Part shown: in pieces, positions 44,797-61,786 of the stretch
Layout: every line of letters begins with the position of its first letter
How positions within the stretch are numbered: the stretch's first letter is position 1
Origin: an uncultured Gammaproteobacteria bacterium
GTDB lineage: Bacteria; Patescibacteriota; Patescibacteriia; Magasanikbacterales; UBA922
DNA: 64,000 nt
Direction: 5' to 3'
Assembly (NCBI GenBank): GCA_964597575.1
Contig: CAZQXB010000001.1
Location: 466,111 to 530,110, forward strand
The notes under the pieces: generated by a model
Told to the model about the DNA's origin: nothing
Databases searched by the model: none
The model's input: the letters and a program-made list of their open reading frames with translations, nothing else
Position numbers and translations under genes: made by a program

Positions 44797-46092
44797 ATGC
44801 CTAAGAAAAAAAAGAGCGCCCAGGGTTTCGCGGCCCGGGTGAAGCGAGCAGTAAAGAAAATTGGAGCCGTAAAAAAAGTCGTAGCGAAACCTCAGAAAAA
44901 AGTGTTGCCGAAACCTCGGCCAGCACAGAAGCAAAAGTTTTCTAAAAAACCATTTGTTAAAGGGCCTCCAGCTCCTCCAGAGCCTGAGCCAGATTTTACC
45001 TCTCCGACCGACGATAACTTACTTAAGCTCGTTGATAAGGGGAGAGGCCGTGGATTTATTACCGAAACAGAAGTGGTTCGTGTATTTCCGTATTTAGAAC
45101 GATACCTTCCGCTGTACGAAGTCTTTTTGGATGCACTCGAAAAAAACGGTGTTTCTGTTGTAGAAACTGGGGGAGGACTTTTAGGAAACACGGTTCAGAA
45201 AAAAGAAATGCTTTCGAGTTTGCGCGGGAAACAGCCGGATGTGGAAGGTGAGTTTGATTTGGGAAGTATTTCTCAAGATTCTATTCAGATGTATCTGCGC
45301 GAAATTGGGAAGATTCCGCTTCTGAATGCTGAAGAAGAAGTGTCGCTCGCGAAACGTAAAGAACGAGGGGATCGTGAGGCTGAACGAAAAATGATTGAAG
45401 CCAACTTGCGACTGGTCGTTTCGATTGCGAAAAAGTTTGTCGGAAAACAGCTTTCTCTTTTGGATTTAATCCAAGAAGGAAATATTGGCTTGTTCCGTGC
45501 CGTGAAGAAGTTCGACTATCGCAAAGGGTACAAGTTTTCAACGTACGCTACGTGGTGGATTCGCCAAGCCATTACGCGTGCTTTGGCCGACCAGTCCCGT
45601 ACTATTCGTATTCCGGTTCACATGGTCGAAACCATCAACCGTTTTCAACAAGTACAGCGTCGTTTGCTCCAAGATTTAGGTCGTGATCCAACCCCTGAAG
45701 AGTTGGCTGCCGAAATGGGTGAGGAAATCGAAAAGATTAATCACATCATTAAAATTTCTCAAGAAACCATTTCTCTTGAAACAAGTGTGGGGGATGACGA
45801 TGATGATACGCAGTTGGCCGACTTTATCGAAGACGTGAAAAATGTGAGCCCGGCACAAGTGGCCGGAGTGCAGTTGCTCCGTGAATACATTCATGAAGCA
45901 ATTAAAGATCTGTCTCCGCGTGAACAAAAAATTCTTGAAATGCGTTTTGGTCTCTCAGACGGTGTCACGCACACGCTTGAAGAAGTAGGAAAAGAATTTG
46001 ATGTAACCCGTGAACGTATTCGCCAAATTGAAGCGAAGGCGCTCGAAAAGATTCAGAACATGGGAATTATTGATAAGTTGCGAGACTACTAA
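44797..46092 (+). CDS. rpoD: RNA polymerase sigma factor RpoD (sigma70, Lys-rich N-terminus)
   Basis: Regions 1.2-4 present: [44 protein letters not shown]. Confidence 0.9.
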
Positions 46093-48617: not shown

Positions 48618-50471
48618 ATGACTGAGACAAAGGATGTCTTACCGGTACAAGAATATCGGGACGAAGTTCTGACGTCTGTTCAGAACAATGCGATTACCTT
48701 GATCATTGCCGAAACTGGGGCAGGAAAAAGCACGCAAGTGCCAAAATTCCTCCTTGAAGCTGGCTACAGGGTGGTCGTGACGCAACCCAGACGTTTGGCT
48801 GCGATAAGCTTGGCCACTCGTGTGGCTGAGGAACTAGGGTGCGAAATCGGCACTACTGTAGGCTACCGAACGGGGCATGAGCGCGCATCCTCAAAGGACA
48901 CGCGGTTACTGTTCTGTACGGACGGGCTGCAGTTGGTCCGGGAGCTTACGGGTAACGGTATTGGCGACGACGCAGAAACGGTTCTCGTGCTCGACGAAGT
49001 TCACGAGTGGAATCTCAATCTGGAAATTCTTCTCGGCTTCGTGAAGAAGCAGCAAGAAGAAGGCCAGAACTGCAAGGTTCTGCTCATGTCAGCCACTGTG
49101 GATGTGGAAAAACTGAACGCGTACTTCGGTAGCGTACAGGTTATCCGTATTCCCGGTCGGTTGTATCCGGTGACGTGGGCTTACCGCAGTGCGCGCTCCT
49201 TGTTCACCGAGGTGAGCAGGTTTGCTCGTGGGGGGAAGAATGTGTTGGTTTTTCAGCCGGGGATCAAGGAGGTGAACGACCTCCTGCGTTCGCTCGATGG
49301 ACTCGACGCAGAACTTCTCCCGCTTCATGGAAATCTTGAAGCGAGCGAGCAGACACGGTGCTTCGATCAGTACACCCGACCAAAGGTGATCGTTGCTACG
49401 AACGTCGCGCAGACGTCCGTGACGATTCCCGGGATCGACGCAGTCATAGATTGCGGTCTCGAGAAAAAGCCGCACGTGGTTAATGGTGTCGAAGGGTTGT
49501 ACCCTCGTCCGATTAGCCAAGCCGACTGCCAGCAACGAGCAGGTCGTGCGGGACGCTGTGGTCCGGGAGAGTATGTTCTCTGCGCCGACACTCCCTTCAA
49601 GGATAGAGAGGTATTTCCTTTGCCGGAAATCGCGTATCTCCAACTTGATCAGGTGGTGCTTCGGCTCGCAGCGTTCGGACTCGACGCCTGCTCCTTTCCT
49701 TTCTTCCACGAACCGAATCAGGAGAACCTGGCGCGGTCGAAGGAATGTTTGGAAGGTATGGGCGCCCTAACCGAGGCAGGTGTTGTGACAGAGGTTGGAA
49801 AGCTTATGGCCAAACTTCCTCTCACTGCACGGTACGCACGGATGGTCGTGGAAGCCATGAAACGTAGAGTCGTGGCAGACGTGGTGAAGGTGGTTGCCAT
49901 TCTCGAAGCCGGCGGTCTCCGAGACAAGAATCGAGAGTGGCAGTACTACACGCGTGAAGAGGGAAGTGATCTTCTGGCGGATCTTGAACTGTATGAAGCA
50001 GTCCGAGGGTTGCGCCCGAAAGACATGGAAAAGAGAGGTATCAGTCCCGGAAGATATTACGAGGCCAAGAAGATTGTGGGGGACATTATGCAAGTCCTTC
50101 GCTCTCATCGAGTCTTCGGAGTTTCTCCGGGTTCTCGTCGCGATATCCTCCTTGCCTGTGCTGCCGGTATGGCGGATCAGGTCCATCGACACGTGGGTGG
50201 TGGTTGGTACGAAAACAAGAAAGGAGAGAAAAGAAAAAAGTCGTCACAAAGTGCGGTTACTGGTGAGCCCGAACATGTTGTGGGTTTGCCTCGAGATCTG
50301 CTTCTTGGACAACACGTGAAGCACGTGCTTGAGTACGTTTCCGCCCTGAACGCTGAGCAGATTGCCGAGGTGATGTCGGTAACCCCTCAGCAGACATACT
50401 CCCGGCACGCAGAGCTCGAAGTTGTCCGAGTGCAGCGTGCGGTGGTATCAAAGGAGGCAAAAAAACACTGA
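48618..50471 (+). CDS. DEAH-box (HrpA/HrpB-like) ATP-dependent helicase
   Basis: GAGKST Walker A, DEVHE box, TQPRR, SAT, QRAGRAGR motifs and a helicase-associated C-terminus; 617 aa at about 55% GC. Confidence 0.85.
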   Translation: MTETKDVLPVQEYRDEVLTSVQNNAITLIIAETGAGKSTQVPKFLLEAGYRVVVTQPRRLAAISLATRVAEELGCEIGTTVGYRTGHERASSKDTRLLFCTDGLQLVRELTGNGIGDDAETVLVLDEVHEWNLNLEILLGFVKKQQEEGQNCKVLLMSATVDVEKLNAYFGSVQVIRIPGRLYPVTWAYRSARSLFTEVSRFARGGKNVLVFQPGIKEVNDLLRSLDGLDAELLPLHGNLEASEQTRCFDQYTRPKVIVATNVAQTSVTIPGIDAVIDCGLEKKPHVVNGVEGLYPRPISQADCQQRAGRAGRCGPGEYVLCADTPFKDREVFPLPEIAYLQLDQVVLRLAAFGLDACSFPFFHEPNQENLARSKECLEGMGALTEAGVVTEVGKLMAKLPLTARYARMVVEAMKRRVVADVVKVVAILEAGGLRDKNREWQYYTREEGSDLLADLELYEAVRGLRPKDMEKRGISPGRYYEAKKIVGDIMQVLRSHRVFGVSPGSRRDILLACAAGMADQVHRHVGGGWYENKKGEKRKKSSQSAVTGEPEHVVGLPRDLLLGQHVKHVLEYVSALNAEQIAEVMSVTPQQTYSRHAELEVVRVQRAVVSKEAKKH

Positions 50472-50792: not shown

Positions 50793-52064
50793 GTGAGAAA
50801 GAAGGAAATGCGAAAAGACAAAACAGTCATGCAGGTGACCGCGGCGAATAATCTTCCACGGGTTCCTAACAATGAACCGGGGAAGAAGCGTGGTCGGCCC
50901 AAGAAAACTGTGATTGCAGAGGGGGTAGAAAGCACTCTTCCGACCCCGGAAGATTTCGAGGCAGAAGAAGAAAAACTTACTGCTGAAGAATCTGCCCGAA
51001 TCAAGCGCCAGGGGTTCATCTTCACGGATGAGCTTTTACGCGCCTCTACGCCTACGAAGGAACAGTCCACGAAAGCCCGAGAGTATCTTGGGGAAGAGGA
51101 CTTTGAACTTTTTTGGGCGATACGTTTCGGTACGCCGAAAGAAAGGATCGAGGCGCGGCGTGATTTGGTAGTAAGGCACACAGCCTTAGTGTGGTGGCTC
51201 ATTCTGAGAGAGCCCTTCTACGGTATTATTTCGAACAGGAAGTGGGATTGCGCGCTTGATTTCGAGGATCTGGCTCAAGAGGCCATATCATTCGGGCTCA
51301 CGAAGGCAATCGAAAAGTTCGACTACACACGAGAAGGTAAGTTCTCCACCTACGCCTACTACTGGATATACCAGGCTGCCCATCGGTGTATCGACAATGC
51401 GGGCGTTATCCGTGTGCCGGTTCACATGATTGAGAAGTACCGGAAGTATCAGGAGGTGCGTACTCAGATTGCCTGGCTGCAATCTGGGGAATGGGCAAGC
51501 CCATCACAACTTCAGACAGCTCTCGAGATGTCTGAGGAAGAGTTTGTGCAACTGCAGCATGCGGCAACGATCATCGATGGTCGAGGCTTGTCGTGGCTGT
51601 TTAAAGGAATGAACTGGAGGGTGAATCATAAAAATAGCCGCTCTCGGGCTGATACGTATCAGACGATGCTTGAAATCGCATTGGATGGTGCCGAAGAGTC
51701 AGAGAAAAACACGGCTGAGCAAGTGAGTGATGCCATTGACTTCCGTCAGCTTCAAGTGAAGTTGTCGGAGTTTCTTAGGGAGACTGACGTGCTCGTGGAA
51801 GCGGAGCGATTCGTTCTCACGTGGCGCTTTGGTCTGAATGGCGAAGCATCAGAAACTCTCGAGCAGGTTGGAGAAAGGATAGGGCTCACGCGCGAGCGTA
51901 TTCGACAGATTGAGGCTAAGGCTGTCGAGAAGTTGCGGAATTCGAAACTCTGGGAAAATGTGGCCCTGCCGTATTGGTCCGAAGTTACGGGGATCGCACA
52001 CGAAACCTCCATGGTCGAGTCGGCGTCTCTCCTCTTTTTAGCAAAAGTTAGGGGTGCGACGTGA
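50793..52064 (+). CDS. sigma-70 family RNA polymerase sigma factor (second copy) with an N-terminal AT-hook (KRGRPKK)
   Basis: Region 2 (FSTYAYYWIYQAAHRCI...VIRVPVHM) and region 4 ([17 protein letters not shown]); divergent from rpoD at 44797. GC-rich. Confidence 0.8.
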   Translation: MRKKEMRKDKTVMQVTAANNLPRVPNNEPGKKRGRPKKTVIAEGVESTLPTPEDFEAEEEKLTAEESARIKRQGFIFTDELLRASTPTKEQSTKAREYLGEEDFELFWAIRFGTPKERIEARRDLVVRHTALVWWLILREPFYGIISNRKWDCALDFEDLAQEAISFGLTKAIEKFDYTREGKFSTYAYYWIYQAAHRCIDNAGVIRVPVHMIEKYRKYQEVRTQIAWLQSGEWASPSQLQTALEMSEEEFVQLQHAATIIDGRGLSWLFKGMNWRVNHKNSRSRADTYQTMLEIALDGAEESEKNTAEQVSDAIDFRQLQVKLSEFLRETDVLVEAERFVLTWRFGLNGEASETLEQVGERIGLTRERIRQIEAKAVEKLRNSKLWENVALPYWSEVTGIAHETSMVESASLLFLAKVRGAT

Positions 52065-52765: not shown

Positions 52766-52793
52766 CGAGAGCTGATCGGTTGCGATAACCGAC

Positions 52794-52828
52794 CCGGCAT
52801 TGTCTGAACACAATGACCGGGTTTTTTA
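52794..52828 (+). terminator. rho-independent terminator after rnc
   Basis: cccggcattgt-ctgaac-acaatgaccggg followed by tttttt. Confidence 0.65.
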
Positions 52829-53050
52829 ATTCTAAATAAAAAGTTGAGGAAGATCGGGGAGTGTGATAGGCTTTTAGGGAAGGTGGTGAGTGTAATTTTT
52901 TTGTGTATGCCCTTCGGTGAAGGTTTCAAATTCAATTTTTTTAAACGAAAAGACGAAGGGGAATTACGAGCCCAGGTCGAATCAGCCGAGGAACGTTTAG
53001 ATGTTTCGCCGAAAGAAAAGATTGTACCCCCTAAGCATCAGGAGGATTTA

Positions 53051-56000
53051 ATGAATCTACCTTTTAATGATCTGAAGGAACGTTTTGGGGCTCGGTACGA
53101 TATGTACCTCCGTCTTTTGCGTGAGCAAAAACAAATGGAAAGAGTGGGGAATGAAAATGGTATGCAAATAAATAATGATGAGATATTGGAAATGAAAAAG
53201 TGGCTGTCTGCTCTGAACTCATTAGACGAGTATATTGCTAAATATGCAGAGGGTGAAGAAGACACGCTCTATGAAGAACAGCTAACCGTTTTTGAAGATT
53301 TGCGTAAATTTCTCGAGACAGGGAAAAAAGATGGGTACATAAAGCTCCCAACAGGAACCGGAAAGACAGTGCTCTTTTCTGAATTCGTCGAAGCTTTAGG
53401 GTTAAAGACCCTCATAGTTACGCCGAAAAAATTGCTGGTCAGACAAACCGAAAAAGCATTCCACGAATTTGCTGAAGATATTGATGTTGGAAAAATTTAC
53501 TCAAATGCAAAACAATACGGGAGGGCGGTTACTATTACCACCTACGATTCCCTAGTAGCTGGGTTACGAAATGGAACTATCCATGCTGAGGATTACGAAT
53601 GTCTTATTTTGGACGAAGTACACGAATCATTAAGCGATGCTCGTGCGAATGCTGTTGATCAGTTTAAGGGGAAGGTGAGAATTGGTTTTACCGCTACCCC
53701 AGAATTTTCCGATAAGAAAAAAGTAAGTCAACTGTTGGAGCATGAAATTCATCGCATGGAAATTCGTGAAGCGGTTAAAGATGGGCTTCTTTCTCCCGTC
53801 ACTTGTATTGTTGCTCGCACTGAGGTTGATCTAGATTCTGTTCCTCTTACAGCTTCTGGTGAGTATAGTGAGGAAGAGTTGAAACTGGCTGTAAATATTG
53901 CTGGGCGCAATCAGGTCGCTATTGAATTTTACCTCAAAAATACCCCTAATGAATTAGCTGTAGTATATTGCGTTGGGGTTGAGCATGCAAAACTCATGGC
54001 AGACAAATTTTATGAAGCAGGAGTGCCTGCTACCTACATTAGTGGCGCCATGGATGATGAAAAACAACAACAAATTTTAGACGGTTATGCGAGTGGTAAA
54101 TACAAGGTTCTCTGTAATGCTGATATTCTTGTTGCTGGGTTTAACGAACCAAAAGCCAGTGTGTGTTTGAACCTCAGACCAACCCGATCTCGCGTGGTTG
54201 CCGAGCAGCGAGCCGGGCGTGTTCTTCGGGTTGATAAAAATAATTCAGATAAGCACGCACTTGTTGTTGATTTTCTCGATAAATCAGGTGAGCTCCCGGT
54301 TATTTTTCCTCAGATCATTGATACCAATCAAATTGTTCCAAAGAAGAAAAGAAGGGAGGGTGAAGAAGGTGATGATAGGGAGGTAGTAGATTATATACCA
54401 ATGCGCCCACCAATTATCGATGTGGAAGGTCTGGATATGGTTACGGATTACGAGGAGGTGTTAAAGATTGTGCGGGAACGGGAAAGGGTTGATAAAAAAG
54501 ATAATTTTCTTAGTTTAGAAGAACTAAAGACACAGGTTCTAAGTGAGGGCATTGTAGACGGAAAGCAGTACGTAAAGGTGTATAAAGAGCACCCGGGTTG
54601 GCCATCCACTCCGGCATATACCTATGGCGAAAAATGGCCGGGATGGAAAATATTTTTGAATAAAGAAGCCGTAGAATTTTTGTCTCTTGATGAATTGCAA
54701 AAGCAGGTTTTGGCGGCTGATGTTCAAGACGAAGTGGATTATAAAAAAATAAAGAAAGATCATAAAGATTGGCCATATGACCCCGCTTATTTTTATAAAG
54801 GCGAATGGCAAAATTGGAGAGAATTTTTAAAGAAAAATAATAGATTCTTGTCTTATGATGCAATGCGTCTGCAGGTAAAAGAAAAAGGCGTTTCTGATTG
54901 GGGGCAGTATCAAAAAGTGTATAAAAATCACCCTGGCTGGCCATCGAATCCGTATGCAACATATAGAGATGAGTGGAATGGTTATCCAGAATTTTTTGGT
55001 AAAGAAGTAGTCGAGTTTTTTTTATTTGAGAAAGCAAGAGAAGTCGTGCGTTCAGCAAAGATAAAAAACAATAAGGAATATAAAAAAGAATATAAAAAAT
55101 ACCCAGGTCTGCCGGCTGTTCCCAGTGAAATTTATAAAGATCAATGGATAAGCTGGCCTGAATTTTTAGGTACCGAAGTGGCTGATCTTTCCTATACAGA
55201 CTTGCGTGAGCAGGTTCGTTCGGCGGGAATTAAAACAGGGGCTGATTATGTGGCAGTATACAAAAATCACCCTGGCTGGCCATCCACACCTGCTTCTACC
55301 TACGGTGAACAATGGCCAGGTTGGATCGAGTTTTTAGGAAAGGAGAGCGTTTCACTTCTTCCTATGGAAGAAGTGAAACTTGCTGTTCGAAGTTTGTTGG
55401 TGGATACGAAAGAAAAATATACTGCCGTCTATAAGAATCATAAGGGCTGGCCATCGAATCCTAGTTCATGCTATAAAGATCAATGGATAAGCTGGCCTGA
55501 ATTTTTAGGTACAGAAGATAGATTTCTATCTTATGAAGAACTACAAGCTCAAGTAAAAGAGAGGGGGGTAAAATCAAGTCCGCAATATAAAAAGGAATCT
55601 AAGAGGCAAAAAAATTGGCCTTCCGACCCGCAAAGTTTTTATGATGAAAGATGGATGGGTTGGGATTCTTTCTTTGAAAGAAGTGATCGATTCCTTTCAT
55701 ATGTTGACTTGCAGGCTCAAGTAAAAGCCGCGGGTATTACAGATAATAAAGGCTATAGTGCAGTATATAAAAATCACCCAGGCTGGCCATCGAATCCTAA
55801 CCATATTTACAAAAATCAATGGAAGGGTTGGTCAGAATTTTTTGGTAAAGAAGTGGCTGAATTTCTTACTCTTAGTAAGCTTCAGGATGAGGTTCGGGCC
55901 GCGGGTATTACAGATAATAAAGGCTATAGTGCAGTATACAAAAATCACCCTGGCTGGCCATCGAATCCCCCAGTCTTGTACGAGGATGTGTGGCAGGGAT

Positions 56001-56434
56001 GGAAAGAATTTTTCGGCACTAAAATTGAATTTCTTAAATTTGATGCTTTTAAAAAGCAGGTTCGGGAAGCAAAAATTACTACCCCAATGCACTATATAGA
56101 GGTATATAAAAATCATCCCGGTTGGCCGTCAACGCCAAAAAGGACATATGGCGATAGTTGGCCAGGTTGGGCTGCACTTTTAGGGGAATTCACCCCCAGC
56201 ACGGCTGTCTCAACTATAGAAACCTCAGTTGAAAGTAAAAATGCTACACATGAGCGTCCTGCATCATTTAAAGAGTTTCGCAGGCAGTTACGCGAAGCAA
56301 AAATTAGAAGTATTTCGCAATACGAAGAAGTATACCGAGATCATCCTGGCTGGCCAGCCAGTCCGCACATAGAATACGGTGAACAGTGGCCTGGATGGAA
56401 AGAGTTTTTTAAGAAAAAAAAGAAGAAAAAGTAA
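53051..56434 (+). CDS. SF2 (ResIII/DEAD-like) helicase fused to 11 tandem 57-aa Trp-rich repeats, ending in a poly-Lys tail
   Basis: Motif I LPTGTGKT, II LDEVHE, III FTATP, VI QRAGRVLR. ATG at 53051 has an AGGAGG RBS, whereas the track ORF starts at TTG 52844. Repeats run about 54507-56403 with core YxxVYKNHPGWPSNPxxxYxxxWxGWxEFLG. Confidence 0.8.
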   Translation: MNLPFNDLKERFGARYDMYLRLLREQKQMERVGNENGMQINNDEILEMKKWLSALNSLDEYIAKYAEGEEDTLYEEQLTVFEDLRKFLETGKKDGYIKLPTGTGKTVLFSEFVEALGLKTLIVTPKKLLVRQTEKAFHEFAEDIDVGKIYSNAKQYGRAVTITTYDSLVAGLRNGTIHAEDYECLILDEVHESLSDARANAVDQFKGKVRIGFTATPEFSDKKKVSQLLEHEIHRMEIREAVKDGLLSPVTCIVARTEVDLDSVPLTASGEYSEEELKLAVNIAGRNQVAIEFYLKNTPNELAVVYCVGVEHAKLMADKFYEAGVPATYISGAMDDEKQQQILDGYASGKYKVLCNADILVAGFNEPKASVCLNLRPTRSRVVAEQRAGRVLRVDKNNSDKHALVVDFLDKSGELPVIFPQIIDTNQIVPKKKRREGEEGDDREVVDYIPMRPPIIDVEGLDMVTDYEEVLKIVRERERVDKKDNFLSLEELKTQVLSEGIVDGKQYVKVYKEHPGWPSTPAYTYGEKWPGWKIFLNKEAVEFLSLDELQKQVLAADVQDEVDYKKIKKDHKDWPYDPAYFYKGEWQNWREFLKKNNRFLSYDAMRLQVKEKGVSDWGQYQKVYKNHPGWPSNPYATYRDEWNGYPEFFGKEVVEFFLFEKAREVVRSAKIKNNKEYKKEYKKYPGLPAVPSEIYKDQWISWPEFLGTEVADLSYTDLREQVRSAGIKTGADYVAVYKNHPGWPSTPASTYGEQWPGWIEFLGKESVSLLPMEEVKLAVRSLLVDTKEKYTAVYKNHKGWPSNPSSCYKDQWISWPEFLGTEDRFLSYEELQAQVKERGVKSSPQYKKESKRQKNWPSDPQSFYDERWMGWDSFFERSDRFLSYVDLQAQVKAAGITDNKGYSAVYKNHPGWPSNPNHIYKNQWKGWSEFFGKEVAEFLTLSKLQDEVRAAGITDNKGYSAVYKNHPGWPSNPPVLYEDVWQGWKEFFGTKIEFLKFDAFKKQVREAKITTPMHYIEVYKNHPGWPSTPKRTYGDSWPGWAALLGEFTPSTAVSTIETSVESKNATHERPASFKEFRRQLREAKIRSISQYEEVYRDHPGWPASPHIEYGEQWPGWKEFFKKKKKKK
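54507..56403 (+). repeat. coding tandem repeat array (11 x about 171 bp) inside the helicase gene
   Basis: Period of about 171 nt; units 8 and 9 share a near-identical 68-bp stretch (55726-55793 vs 55894-55961). Confidence 0.8.
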
Positions 56435-56448
56435 GTAGAAAATTTTAA

Positions 56449-56485
56449 TCGTAAAAGGACCCCATGGGGTCCTTTTACGTCTCTC
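56449..56485. terminator. bidirectional rho-independent terminator (helicase gene / sod)
   Basis: Perfect palindrome aaaaggacccca|tggggtcctttt with flanking T/A tracts. Confidence 0.7.
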
Positions 56486-56498
56486 TTTTTGTATATTT

Positions 56499-57098
56499 TT
56501 ACACCGCGCAATCACTTACCTTCACTAACCGTTCATTCACCACGCTCCAATCCACCGCTTTCATAAACGCCTCAATATAATCGGCGCGTTTTATGCCGTA
56601 GTCAAGCATAAACGCGTGTTCAAATACATCCATAATAAGAAGTGGAGTGGTTCCGGCAAGATGACCCACGTCGTGTTCGTTCACCCACACGTTCATGAGT
56701 TTATCAGCCACATGGTCATAGGTAAGTATTGCCCAGCCAATACCGCGCATGGCACCGGTTGCTCGGAATTCTTTTTCCCAAGCCGCCATAGAACCAAACG
56801 AGGCAATAATTTTTTGCTCAATCATCTCACCTTTCCCAAGTTCAATACCACCATTCTCCATGTTCCCAAAATACAATTCATGAAGGCGCATGCCGTTCCA
56901 TTCCCAACCCAACCGACGTTTCAGTTCTGCGTATTCACCAGGTGTAGCTTTATCTTCTTTTGCCAAAGCCTCGAGTCGTTCAAGAAACGTGTTCGTATTT
57001 TTCACATACCCTTCGTAAAGGGTGAAGTGGTTTTTTAATAAGGCATCAGAGAAGCCTTCGGTTCCAAGCAAATGCTCGAAGTTTTGTGCGGTATACAT
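56499..57098 (-). CDS. sod: Fe/Mn superoxide dismutase
   Basis: 199 aa; His/Asp metal ligands in conserved context (DVFEHAFMLDYG, WVNEHDVGH). Confidence 0.9.
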   Translation of the reverse strand: MYTAQNFEHLLGTEGFSDALLKNHFTLYEGYVKNTNTFLERLEALAKEDKATPGEYAELKRRLGWEWNGMRLHELYFGNMENGGIELGKGEMIEQKIIASFGSMAAWEKEFRATGAMRGIGWAILTYDHVADKLMNVWVNEHDVGHLAGTTPLLIMDVFEHAFMLDYGIKRADYIEAFMKAVDWSVVNERLVKVSDCAV

Positions 57099-57125
57099 AG
57101 AACCTTAGTCAAAGATGAAGAAATT

Positions 57126-57704
57126 TTAAATTTTTCCGACTAAATCCATACCCGGTTTCAAGGTCTTTGATCCCGGTTTCCATTTTGCAGGGCAAACTTC
57201 GCCACCATTGTCGCGTACATAAATCGCGGCCTGCACCTTGCGTAAAAGCTCATCAGCACTGCGGCCAATGCTGTTGTCGTGGATTTCAAACGCTTTAATG
57301 ACACCCTCTGGGTCAATAATAAAGCTGGCGCGGTACGATAATCCTTCTTCTGGAATGTATGTCCCAAGCGCACGGCACAAGTTACCGGTTGGGTCGGCTG
57401 CCATTGGGTAGGTAATATCTTTAATTGTTGGAGAGTTGTCGTGCCATGCTTTGTGTACAAACACGGTATCAGTCGAAACACTCACAATTTCGGCGTTCAA
57501 CTTTTTTAATTCTTCGTATTTTTCAGCAATATCTGTTAATTCCGTTGGGCACACAAACGTAAAGTCAGCTGGGTAGAAAAACAAAATGAGCCACTTGCCA
57601 GCAAAGTCGGTTCGAAGGTTCATTTTCTTTGTTTTGTTACTCTGGAAAACGTCGAGTGTCATGTCTGGAACCATCTGTCCAATGAGGGGTTTTGTCATGT
57701 CCAT
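57126..57704 (-). CDS. 2-Cys peroxiredoxin (AhpC/Prx1 family)
   Basis: FTFVCPTEL peroxidatic Cys motif and a C-terminal resolving Cys (EVCPAKW). Confidence 0.9.
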   Translation of the reverse strand: MDMTKPLIGQMVPDMTLDVFQSNKTKKMNLRTDFAGKWLILFFYPADFTFVCPTELTDIAEKYEELKKLNAEIVSVSTDTVFVHKAWHDNSPTIKDITYPMAADPTGNLCRALGTYIPEEGLSYRASFIIDPEGVIKAFEIHDNSIGRSADELLRKVQAAIYVRDNGGEVCPAKWKPGSKTLKPGMDLVGKI

Positions 57705-59671: not shown

Positions 59672-61786
59672 TTGTCTGTAGAAACCGTATCCTGTATGCC
59701 AGTTCCACAACTTCAAGCGAAAGGAGCCGAAATAAAACCACCGCCAGATATTTGTTTATTTGCTCAAACCGAATTTCGTAGTCAAATTCGGCGTTTTGGT
59801 ATTAAAACAGACGACCGCCGCCGCCACATGTACGTGATCGGAAAAACTGGTATGGGCAAGACCACCATCATGGAAAACATGGTGTTAAATGATATTTATG
59901 CGGGCCACGGGCTCGGGTTGGTTGATCCGCACGGGGATTTTGCAGAAAAAATTATCAACTTTGTACCAGCGAATCGTATTAACGATGTCGTGTATATTAA
60001 TCCGTCAGATACGGAATTTCCGATCGGCTTTAACATTTTGGAAGTAAAAAATGAAGAACAGAAGCACTTGATCTCGGCCGGTCTCATGGGAATTTTCAAA
60101 AAGATCTGGCCTGATGTGTGGAGTTCACGCATGGAGTATATTTTAAATAACACTCTTTTGGCGCTGCTCGATACGCCAGGAACAACGCTTCTTGGTATTA
60201 ATCGTATGCTTTCTGATAAAGCATACCGCCGTAAAATTGTTCGCCAAATTACTGATCCCGTGGTGAAGGCGTTTTGGGAAATTGAATTTGCAAACTACGA
60301 AGATCGGTATGCGAAAGAAGCCGTTGCCCCAATTCAAAATAAAATTGGTCAGTTTTTGTCGGCCTCAGTCATCCGAAACATGGTGGCTCAGGTCAAATCA
60401 ACCATTAATATTCGGGAGCTCATGGACACACAAAAAATTGTGATCATGAACTTGTCGAAGGGGCGTATCGGGGAAGACAACAGCCGTTTGCTTGGGGCCA
60501 TGCTTATTACCAAAATTCAACTGGCGGCCATGGAGCGCGTAGACACGCCAGAAGCCGAACGTAAAGACTTCTTTTTATTTGTTGACGAGTTTCAAAACTT
60601 TGCGACACCGAGTTTTGCGAACATTTTATCTGAAGCGCGTAAGTATCGTTTAAGTTTGATCATGGCGCACCAATATGTGATGCAGCTTGATGAGGTGGTG
60701 GCCGATGCCGTCTTCGGAAACGTAGGCACGATCGTTACCTTCCGTGTGGGGGGTTCTGATGCCGAGGTGTTAGTAAAAGAATTCACACCTACGTTTACCG
60801 AGGAAGATATTGTGAACTTACCGAAGTTTCATGTGCTCATGAAACTCATGATCGATGGGGTGGCCTCGCATCCGTTTAGTGCAGCCACACTTGGACCGTT
60901 GGCGGCTGCTACCGGAAGTGCAGAAAAAGTGATCCGTGTTTCTCGTGAACGGTATGGTCGGCTGAAAGCCGAAATTGAAGAAAAAATTGCGCGTTGGAGC
61001 GGTATGGAGCCATCGGATAGTGAAGATGGCGAAGATATGGAAGATGGGCCCGCACCAAGAAAATCGTTGTATGGGAAGCAAATGGCTCGGCCAGGTGCCT
61101 CCCAGGGCGGTGGTGGGGGAGAACGCAGAGGTAGTCCGCCGTCACGAGGTGGTTCTTCGCCACAACGAAGTGGTGGTCAACAAAGTAATGGTGATCGTCC
61201 GCCAAGAACAGCTTCTCTGTCTGCACTTCCGCCACGCCCTGAAAGAACCGATCGGCCAGCGGCTCCAATGCCACCAAAACCTATGGCTTCTGCTCTTCCG
61301 ACCCCTATGCCTGCGGCGGCACCTGCGCCTGTAGGCGGAGCTACACCAAGTGCATCAACAGGAAGCCCGGTAGCCCCAGCACCTGCATTTACGTCAACGT
61401 ACCAACCTTCTACCGCCTCACCATCTGTTCCACAATCTTTACCACCAAGAGGCAACGGCGCTCCTTCAGCTTCGTTTAATACTGTCGGTCCTGACGGAGA
61501 AATAATGACGAAGAGTAAGAAAAAAAGAAACCGTCGTCGACGGAGCCAGGAAAATAGAGAACTAAGGGGTGGGGGAGATGCACCAGCGCGAACTCCGACC
61601 ATGCGCCCGGTTATTGTGGCCCCAGAACCCGGTGATATGCCAGTATTGCCCCCAGCTACGCCAGTCACACCCATGCCTCCGGCCGCACCAAAACCTGCAG
61701 TACCTACTCCGCCTCCAGTAGAGCATATACCGACCCCTCCACCGGTCGTAATTGCCCCTAATGAGGTGATCCGGTTCGACCCATAA
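59672..61786 (+). CDS. TraG/VirD4/TraD-family (type IV coupling protein-like) P-loop ATPase with a roughly 300-aa Pro/Ala/Gly-rich disordered C-terminal tail
   Basis: Walker A GKTGMGKTT, Walker B FLFVDEFQNF, IMAHQ motif; low-complexity tail from about residue 400. Confidence 0.6.
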   Translation: MSVETVSCMPVPQLQAKGAEIKPPPDICLFAQTEFRSQIRRFGIKTDDRRRHMYVIGKTGMGKTTIMENMVLNDIYAGHGLGLVDPHGDFAEKIINFVPANRINDVVYINPSDTEFPIGFNILEVKNEEQKHLISAGLMGIFKKIWPDVWSSRMEYILNNTLLALLDTPGTTLLGINRMLSDKAYRRKIVRQITDPVVKAFWEIEFANYEDRYAKEAVAPIQNKIGQFLSASVIRNMVAQVKSTINIRELMDTQKIVIMNLSKGRIGEDNSRLLGAMLITKIQLAAMERVDTPEAERKDFFLFVDEFQNFATPSFANILSEARKYRLSLIMAHQYVMQLDEVVADAVFGNVGTIVTFRVGGSDAEVLVKEFTPTFTEEDIVNLPKFHVLMKLMIDGVASHPFSAATLGPLAAATGSAEKVIRVSRERYGRLKAEIEEKIARWSGMEPSDSEDGEDMEDGPAPRKSLYGKQMARPGASQGGGGGERRGSPPSRGGSSPQRSGGQQSNGDRPPRTASLSALPPRPERTDRPAAPMPPKPMASALPTPMPAAAPAPVGGATPSASTGSPVAPAPAFTSTYQPSTASPSVPQSLPPRGNGAPSASFNTVGPDGEIMTKSKKKRNRRRRSQENRELRGGGDAPARTPTMRPVIVAPEPGDMPVLPPATPVTPMPPAAPKPAVPTPPPVEHIPTPPPVVIAPNEVIRFDP

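Follow-up and report, generated by a model that had tools for sequence, protein, structure and literature searches.

Eleven INT_rpt units form the C-terminal tail of a Patescibacteria SF2 helicase and belong to a catalogued repeat family

One gene in a 64,000-nucleotide stretch of Patescibacteria DNA (contig CAZQXB010000001.1, positions 466,111 to 530,110; the window, meaning the whole stretch that was analysed) raises the question of what its repeats are, and what they do for the helicase to which they are fused. The gene codes for a superfamily 2 (SF2) helicase followed by eleven Trp-rich units, a repeat that a sequence-only reading had judged to be of an apparently novel type. That judgment does not hold: by its profile matches, the repeat is a divergent subfamily of the catalogued Pfam family PF14882, and we think that the array probably serves a DNA translocase or helicase as a flexible tail that binds DNA multivalently.

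The identity of the repeat is carried by searches in both directions. The window protein scores 110.2 bits against PF14882 (INT_rpt, 'integrase repeat unit', formerly PHINT_rpt; cutoff 26.5, E=5.5e-32), with seven stretches passing, and the repeat is thus well outside what chance would give. Reciprocally, profile A2 (57 positions), with this helicase family of the candidate phyla radiation (CPR) as the sole source of its units, matched 5,003 cluster representatives (clusters at 50% identity) at E<=1e-3 among 1.84 billion proteins, 752 of them at E<=1e-30. It retrieves GmtZ-type proteins at E 1e-171 to 1e-127 over unit positions 2-54, and its top matches include proteins in which 8-17 N-terminal units precede ~800 residues corresponding to PF13009 (Integrase_2); in GmtZ-type matches, PF14882 covers positions 1-52 to 1-55 of 55. 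In NCBI, such proteins go under 'gamma-mobile-trio integrase GmtZ / VPA1269 family', and those made up of repeats alone under 'integrase repeat-containing protein'; three window units, used as tblastn queries, reach plasmid genes named 'VPA1269 family protein' and 'integrase repeat-containing protein'.

The GmtZ/VPA1269 integrases (PF13009) have tandem arrays of 4-17 units of ~55-57 aa of the same repeat family, and share with the window protein the signature Y...YK.H.GWPS.P...Y...W.GW..FLG. Across 106 units, Y21, W31, P32, P35, Y39, W43, and W46 occur at 88-100% column frequency, and they are kept in 10-11 of the 11 window units; the signature also takes in F/L49-50 and G51. There are differences: the array lies N-terminal to the integrase in GmtZ/VPA1269 but C-terminal to an SF2 helicase here, the window subfamily has Tyr for the helix-2 Trp of the compared phage units and per-unit Pfam scores near the cutoff, and its host is a CPR bacterium, whereas canonical INT_rpt proteins come from Proteobacteria or Cyanobacteria. 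GmtZ is needed experimentally for site-specific excision and insertion of gamma-mobile-trio (GMT) islands, in a study that does not discuss the repeats (10.1101/2023.03.28.534373).

Could the repeat nevertheless be a domain of a new type, with no relation to any catalogued family? Taken singly, two units reach 25.8 and 21.0 bits against PF14882 (positions 2-38 of 55), just under the 26.5 cutoff, the best stretch in the window protein covers only profile positions 1-41 of 55, and an NCBIfam search with a unit matched no model. The partial coverage is explained by the divergence of the subfamily together with a Pfam model that is ~19 residues out of register: residue 374 of homologue P0130 aligns with Pfam position 1 and residue 356 with unit-profile position 2, so that, by this alignment, the model begins ~19 residues into the structural unit and its positions 42-55 are the first helix of the next unit. 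The whole-protein score of 110 bits refutes a new domain, and reciprocal profile and BLAST matches reach annotated canonical members with which the signature residues are shared; we regard it as exceedingly improbable. The confident full-coverage profile match that was to overturn the claim of novelty is thus essentially supplied by PF14882, with coverage inside the window protein itself of only 1-41/55. The reading was correct that the repeat differs from the helicase-associated (HA) domain, since PF03457 gave no match at E<=1 with the whole protein or with single units.

A word-indexed search tool, poorly suited to short repeats, gave no protein match for a two-unit query of 113 aa and only 7 fragments for alignment A1, and a scan of a genome collection found two distant loci only. 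A 485-kb uncultured phage (LR745208, L004:2813-4591) encodes a 592-aa open reading frame (ORF) with five INT_rpt-like units (155 bits, own profile), for which Pfam, including PF14882, gave no match; the repeat superfamily is therefore, on this comparison, wider than the Pfam model. N-terminal to its units are Cys-rich zinc-finger-like motifs and, by eye, an HNH-looking motif; the HNH reading was set aside, having no Pfam support. The best plasmid match to the window's units (33% identity, E 8e-22) is on Deinococcus sp. D7000 plasmid p_6 (L007:3992-4885), where a 297-aa repeat-only 'hypothetical protein' adjoins a Hin recombinase gene.

A unit hidden Markov model (HMM), built from nine obvious copies in the window protein, delimits exactly 11 units of 56-57 aa each at aa 556-1195 (numbered from the TTG start discussed below). 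The earlier description of 11 head-to-tail 57-aa Trp-rich repeats stands for the number of units and for ten of them in succession; the 11th lies behind a 19-aa linker. Scanned in six frames, the window has repeat units only in the helicase gene.

54509-54679, + strand: INT_rpt unit 1 (self-HMM 93.8 bits; six-frame scan)
54680-54850, + strand: INT_rpt unit 2 (self-HMM 85.8 bits)
54848-55018, + strand: INT_rpt unit 3 (self-HMM 95.6 bits)
55019-55189, + strand: INT_rpt unit 4 (holds the best Pfam PF14882 stretch)
55187-55357, + strand: INT_rpt unit 5 (self-HMM 99.9 bits)
55358-55528, + strand: INT_rpt unit 6 (self-HMM 93.4 bits)
55526-55696, + strand: INT_rpt unit 7, the most divergent (KRQKNWPSDP; self-HMM 59.1 bits)
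55694-55864, + strand: INT_rpt unit 8 (self-HMM 101.8 bits; AlphaFold2 three-unit model, mean predicted local distance difference test, pLDDT, 93)
55865-56035, + strand: INT_rpt unit 9 (closest to unit 8: 63-68% aa, 70% nt)
56033-56203, + strand: INT_rpt unit 10 (self-HMM; AlphaFold2 three-unit model)
56204-56260, + strand: non-repeat linker of 19 aa (aa 1121-1139, TTG numbering; low AlphaFold2 confidence)
56261-56428, + strand: INT_rpt unit 11 (self-HMM 67.5 bits)
56411-56431, + strand: C-terminal Lys7 tail, overlapping the end of unit 11, with an A8 homopolymer inside (sequence read directly)

At the DNA level, Tandem Repeats Finder returned 0 tandem-repeat rows because the units are too diverged in nucleotides: they are mutually 40-70% identical in nt and 25-63% in aa, and no two are closer than units 8 and 9. 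Judged by this divergence, the array is old and not a recent expansion; recent repeat expansion or concerted evolution was rejected, the closest pair being just 70% identical in nt. There are seven lysines at the C-terminus (aag aaa aaa aag aag aaa aag taa, 56411-56434), not the eight previously read, and homologues finish ...FLGKK(K), with two or three basic residues only. The A-rich run with A8 that codes for Lys7 could be prone to slippage or to assembly error.

The start of the gene had been left ambiguous between TTG 52844, ATG 52907, and ATG 53051. At least 14 top homologues start opposite query aa 22 (TTG numbering), and the top match of an exhaustive protein search, public protein P0128 (1,175 aa), has exactly the sequence of the window protein translated from ATG 52907; because these two lines agree, the start is, by comparison with homologues, ATG 52907.

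52844-56434, + strand: ORF from the TTG start (ORF list)
52907-56434, + strand: helicase-INT_rpt coding sequence from the preferred start, 1,175 aa plus stop (homologue N-termini, identical public protein)
52844-52906, + strand: in-frame TTG extension, probably untranslated 5' region (outside homologue coverage; 16 nt past the terminator-like hairpin)
52792-52828, + strand: terminator-like hairpin plus U6 after the RNase III gene (12 bp, one bulge; RNA fold -23 kcal/mol, z=-2.9)

The hairpin, which ends 16 nt upstream of TTG 52844, was overlooked by a simple consensus terminator scan because of its bulge, and Rfam and tRNA scans of the 64-kb window gave no match. Since it lies between the two genes, the helicase gene is probably transcribed apart from the upstream RNase III gene. 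This bears on the proposal that the protein is an RNA helicase with an RNA-binding tail acting with the adjacent RNase III, e.g., in rRNA or double-stranded RNA processing. Besides the hairpin, RNase III is nearby in none of three homologue loci (0/3), ResIII outscores DEAD in the Pfam search, the best two-lobe relatives of the motor are double-stranded DNA translocases, and all other INT_rpt partners are DNA enzymes; such an RNA role is thus unlikely. Operon linkage to RNase III was likewise rejected, on the hairpin and the lack of synteny at the three homologue loci.

The motor itself is as first described, a complete SF2/ResIII helicase core: all four quoted motifs (I, II, III, and VI) were located, and Pfam ResIII (87.3 bits, cutoff 22.5) and Helicase_C (51.4 bits, cutoff 23.5) are both above cutoff, which places the protein in the ResIII-type SF2 helicases.

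52955-53248, + strand: family-specific N-terminal helical domain (AlphaFold2 helices at aa 17-114, ATG numbering, pLDDT ~90)
53264-53704, + strand: RecA-like lobe 1, ResIII/DEAD (Pfam ResIII; LPTGTGKT, motif I, at 53345; LDEVHE, motif II, at 53609; FTATP, motif III, at 53687)
53921-54232, + strand: RecA-like lobe 2, Helicase_C (Pfam Helicase_C; QRAGRVLR, motif VI, at 54206)
54311-54508, + strand: charged linker from motor to array, a disordered K/E-rich stretch and then one helix (AlphaFold2 pLDDT 52-60 at aa 481-500; helix 515-532)

The N-terminal helical domain is conserved across homologues and matched no family in the Pfam search. In both structure and sequence, the closest two-lobe relatives of the motor are HsdR, XPB, SauUSI, and RadD, and PHROG phrog_16 ('DNA helicase') matches with 239 bits. 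The N-domain and tail of the window protein differ from those of all four (XPB/Rad25, RadD, SauUSI, and HsdR), and it is without a nuclease. Against XPB/Rad25 it scores 67.6 bits, short of the NCBIfam equivalog cutoff of 610 (NF045503), and it has E-F-S-D in place of the XPB RED motif (TATPEFSDKK in the window, TATFEREDGR in AfXPB, TATPERDDGK in XPBII); against RadD (YejH) it scores 72.7 bits, short of the cutoff of 720 (NF053632), and no RadD zinc finger was detected in it. By these scores and motifs, the window helicase is not an XPB or RadD orthologue.

The motor also resembles those of defence enzymes. PADLOC matched mREase_IV, the SauUSI-like type IV restriction enzymes, at 79 bits, and the likeness to PbeA is also to the motor. 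Proteins with Mrr_cat or Mrr_cat_2 followed by ResIII, Helicase_C, and INT_rpt exist (P0144, P0195, P0220, and P0255 among them), in which, like in the window protein, the SF2 motor precedes 5-12 C-terminal units; at two homologue loci, a recombinase/Fic or a terminase gene is close by. These points would fit an anti-phage or restriction-like component whose repeats target the motor to foreign DNA. However, the PADLOC match is confined to the motor (profile positions 244-566 of 945 only) with no full-length match, and the Pfam search of the window protein found no nuclease domain. The Mrr-type proteins have an N-terminal restriction-endonuclease fold, whereas the window protein has its nuclease-free helical N-domain, and their motor is of a different subfamily (phmmer against the window core gives 1e-7 or nothing). 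The neighbours are housekeeping genes (DnaG, RpoD, RNase III, superoxide dismutase, and peroxiredoxin) with no conserved partner gene, and the helicase family is widespread in CPR genomes. A defence role is very unlikely on this evidence.

A parallel had also been drawn to helicases with multiple HA domains. It is good for architecture, as actinobacterial HA-domain (PF03457) helicases similarly join an SF2 helicase to several small helical modules, but not for sequence, in which they have no relationship to the window repeat; it is an analogy only.

Residues 1-555 have at least 269 homologues, of which the best 120 are 39-55% identical, and all those among the 120 that carry an organism name are from Patescibacteria (Magasanikbacteria, Kerfeldbacteria, Paceibacterota, and others). 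Their tails vary. About 54 of the 120 carry INT_rpt (jackhmmer merges a 'type D' variant with it), ~51 a ~65-aa repeat with sub-threshold HTH_29, HTH_28, and HTH_10 matches, seven a ~68-aa repeat with no Pfam family, one HNH_repeat, and one a sigma-r4 helix-turn-helix (HTH); P0120 mixes INT_rpt and ~65-aa (type C) units in one tail. The ~68-aa (type B) repeat, ALxELExAFxxWQ...FNxxWLxxNGYxxLxxW, without a Pfam match, is seen in P0006, P0010, P0015, P0020, and P0023, and type C, PEGW...YRxxHPEWF...EHYSPEL, in P0030, P0057, P0059, P0092, and P0109; unlike the window's repeat, types B and C may be uncatalogued. Relating the type B tail to HA or INT_rpt was rejected. Aligned by hhalign, INT_rpt helices 1-2 and the H-P-x-W motif match the HTH-like part of the 65-aa repeat weakly (probability 42%, E 2.7e-4).

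Copy number in the CPR helicase family ranges from 1 to 11 (mode 4-5), the window protein having the most, and unit-by-unit identity between orthologues is flat at 30-52%, on which positional orthology of the units was rejected. Because of this and the variable copy number, generic additive binding modules fit better than a fixed code. The partners identified for INT_rpt are Integrase_2 recombinases, enzymes that join an Mrr nuclease to ResIII and Helicase_C, further ResIII helicases, and one HTH-rich protein; many repeat-only INT_rpt proteins also exist.

AlphaFold2 was run on units 8-10 with an alignment of 47 unit triplets. The model has a mean pLDDT of 93 and a predicted template modelling score (pTM) of 0.59, with confidence falling in the inter-unit linkers; the drop in the linkers and the pTM suggest that the units may be arranged as beads on a string. 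In each modelled unit, ~10-residue helices at 3-12 and 18-27 and short helices at 35-38 and 46-49 pack round a W-P-S-x-P loop. Helix 1 reads L-S-x-x-E-L-x-x-E-V-x-x-A-G-I and helix 2 Y-x-x-x-Y-K-x-H, and the short helices carry Y39, W43, W46, and F-L-G; homologue arrays begin and end on the same unit register. A PDB profile search with the unit found no solved relative (best E 0.2), and Foldseek with the unit model found no significant likeness to solved HTH or Myb folds (best E 5, to Myb). A 2021 repeat-modelling survey lists PF14882 without a usable template (PMC8078820).

What, then, does the array do? A literature search found no functional study of the INT_rpt repeat. The sequence-only reading had offered a nucleic-acid or a glycan-binding module; nucleic acid is the better supported, and glycan has no support, as all fusion partners found are cytoplasmic DNA enzymes. 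DNA, not RNA or protein, is the most likely ligand, and tethering the most likely role. Several observations argue for this: all identified partner domains act on DNA, the tail is interchangeable with HTH-like and HNH-associated repeats in orthologous helicases, hhalign ties INT_rpt, weakly, to the HTH-like part of the 65-aa repeat, and array and motor are opposite in charge, the first basic (pI 8.9, net +9, 5% Trp) and the second acidic (pI 5.1, net -21, 0.2% Trp). In the mechanism that we propose, a chromosomal Patescibacteria SF2 translocase or helicase, with a helical N-domain and two RecA-like lobes of the ResIII / XPB-RadD-HsdR type, would bind DNA multivalently through its C-terminal 640 residues, a flexible, basic, Trp-rich string of 11 INT_rpt modules. 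The array would hold the ATP-driven motor on DNA or direct it there, with an affinity that may scale with unit copy number and be aided by the Lys7 end.

The support for a DNA tether is indirect, and units 1-10 are nearly neutral in charge, which weighs against it; we hold it as probable for these reasons and no more strongly. The near-neutral charge would suit a protein-protein interaction or oligomerisation scaffold, e.g., one recruiting partners or binding single-stranded DNA-binding protein or RNA polymerase. Small helical repeats with conserved aromatics often bind peptides, the unit has weak FF-domain-like matches, and repeat-only proteins are numerous. Yet the repeat is found only with DNA-acting enzymes, the same chassis can carry HTH-like or HNH-associated repeats in its stead, and the three homologue loci offer no conserved neighbour as a partner, so a scaffold seems rather unlikely.

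A DNA-binding tail could also be more than a tether. In such a reading, the helicase family would be one motor chassis that has received at least four unrelated arrays, swapped and sometimes mixed (INT_rpt, the 65-aa HTH-like repeat, the 68-aa repeat without a Pfam family, and HNH_repeat), and INT_rpt, for whose fold no solved relative was found, could be a modular DNA-reading unit like Myb or TALE repeats. We consider this unlikely; if true, the arrays would specify where translocases, integrases (GmtZ), and nucleases act, instead of tethering them generically.

Around the helicase gene, the window carries housekeeping genes: DnaG, RpoD, a DEAH helicase, a sigma-like factor, RNase III, superoxide dismutase, peroxiredoxin, and PfkB. 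At three homologue loci, the neighbours are common neither to the window nor to one another, and a conserved gene neighbourhood was accordingly rejected. At 56453-56476, in the gap where the helicase and superoxide dismutase genes converge, a perfect palindrome (aaaaggacccc/atggggtcctttt) looks like a bidirectional terminator. Downstream, convergent Fe/Mn superoxide dismutase and peroxiredoxin genes lie at 56499-57704 (- strand), and at one of the three homologue loci a convergent Cu/Zn superoxide dismutase gene (L001:8463-8933, - strand), non-homologous and of the same function, also follows the helicase; the adjacency may be coincidence or hint at an oxidative-damage link.

Upstream, two sigma-70-family genes lie within 6 kb (44797-46092 and 50793-52064), one a full RpoD-like factor with regions 1.2, 2, 3, and 4, the other coding for 423 aa with regions 2 and 4 only and a long basic N-terminal extension; the stop of the 423-aa gene overlaps the start of the RNase III gene. 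A second SF2 helicase at 48618-50471 (617 aa, DEVHE and QRAGRAGR motifs) is DEAH/HrpA-like by eye, and Pfam matched DEAD and Helicase_C only; the customary HA2/OB accessory domains were not found. A TraG/VirD4-like coupling-protein ATPase (TrwB_AAD_bind, TraG-D_C) at 59672-61786 sits amid otherwise housekeeping genes.

The exact protein is already in public collections, as a singleton at NCBI, Pfam already lists its repeat, and databases hold many helicase-INT_rpt fusions. The chief value of the finding is thus corrective, in that a repeat thought to be new belongs to a catalogued family. PF14882 is large (at least 5,000 clusters at 50% identity), with no known function and no solved structure, and it decorates the GMT-island integrases (GmtZ), restriction-like nuclease-helicases, and a CPR-wide helicase. 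The latter family shows cassette-like tail exchange, with two tail repeats that have no Pfam family, and the 11 units of the window protein are the longest array seen on this helicase. With its confidently predicted unit, the 11-unit protein is a convenient construct for testing INT_rpt-DNA binding, and if INT_rpt does bind DNA, this would help to explain site choice by GMT islands and related enzymes.

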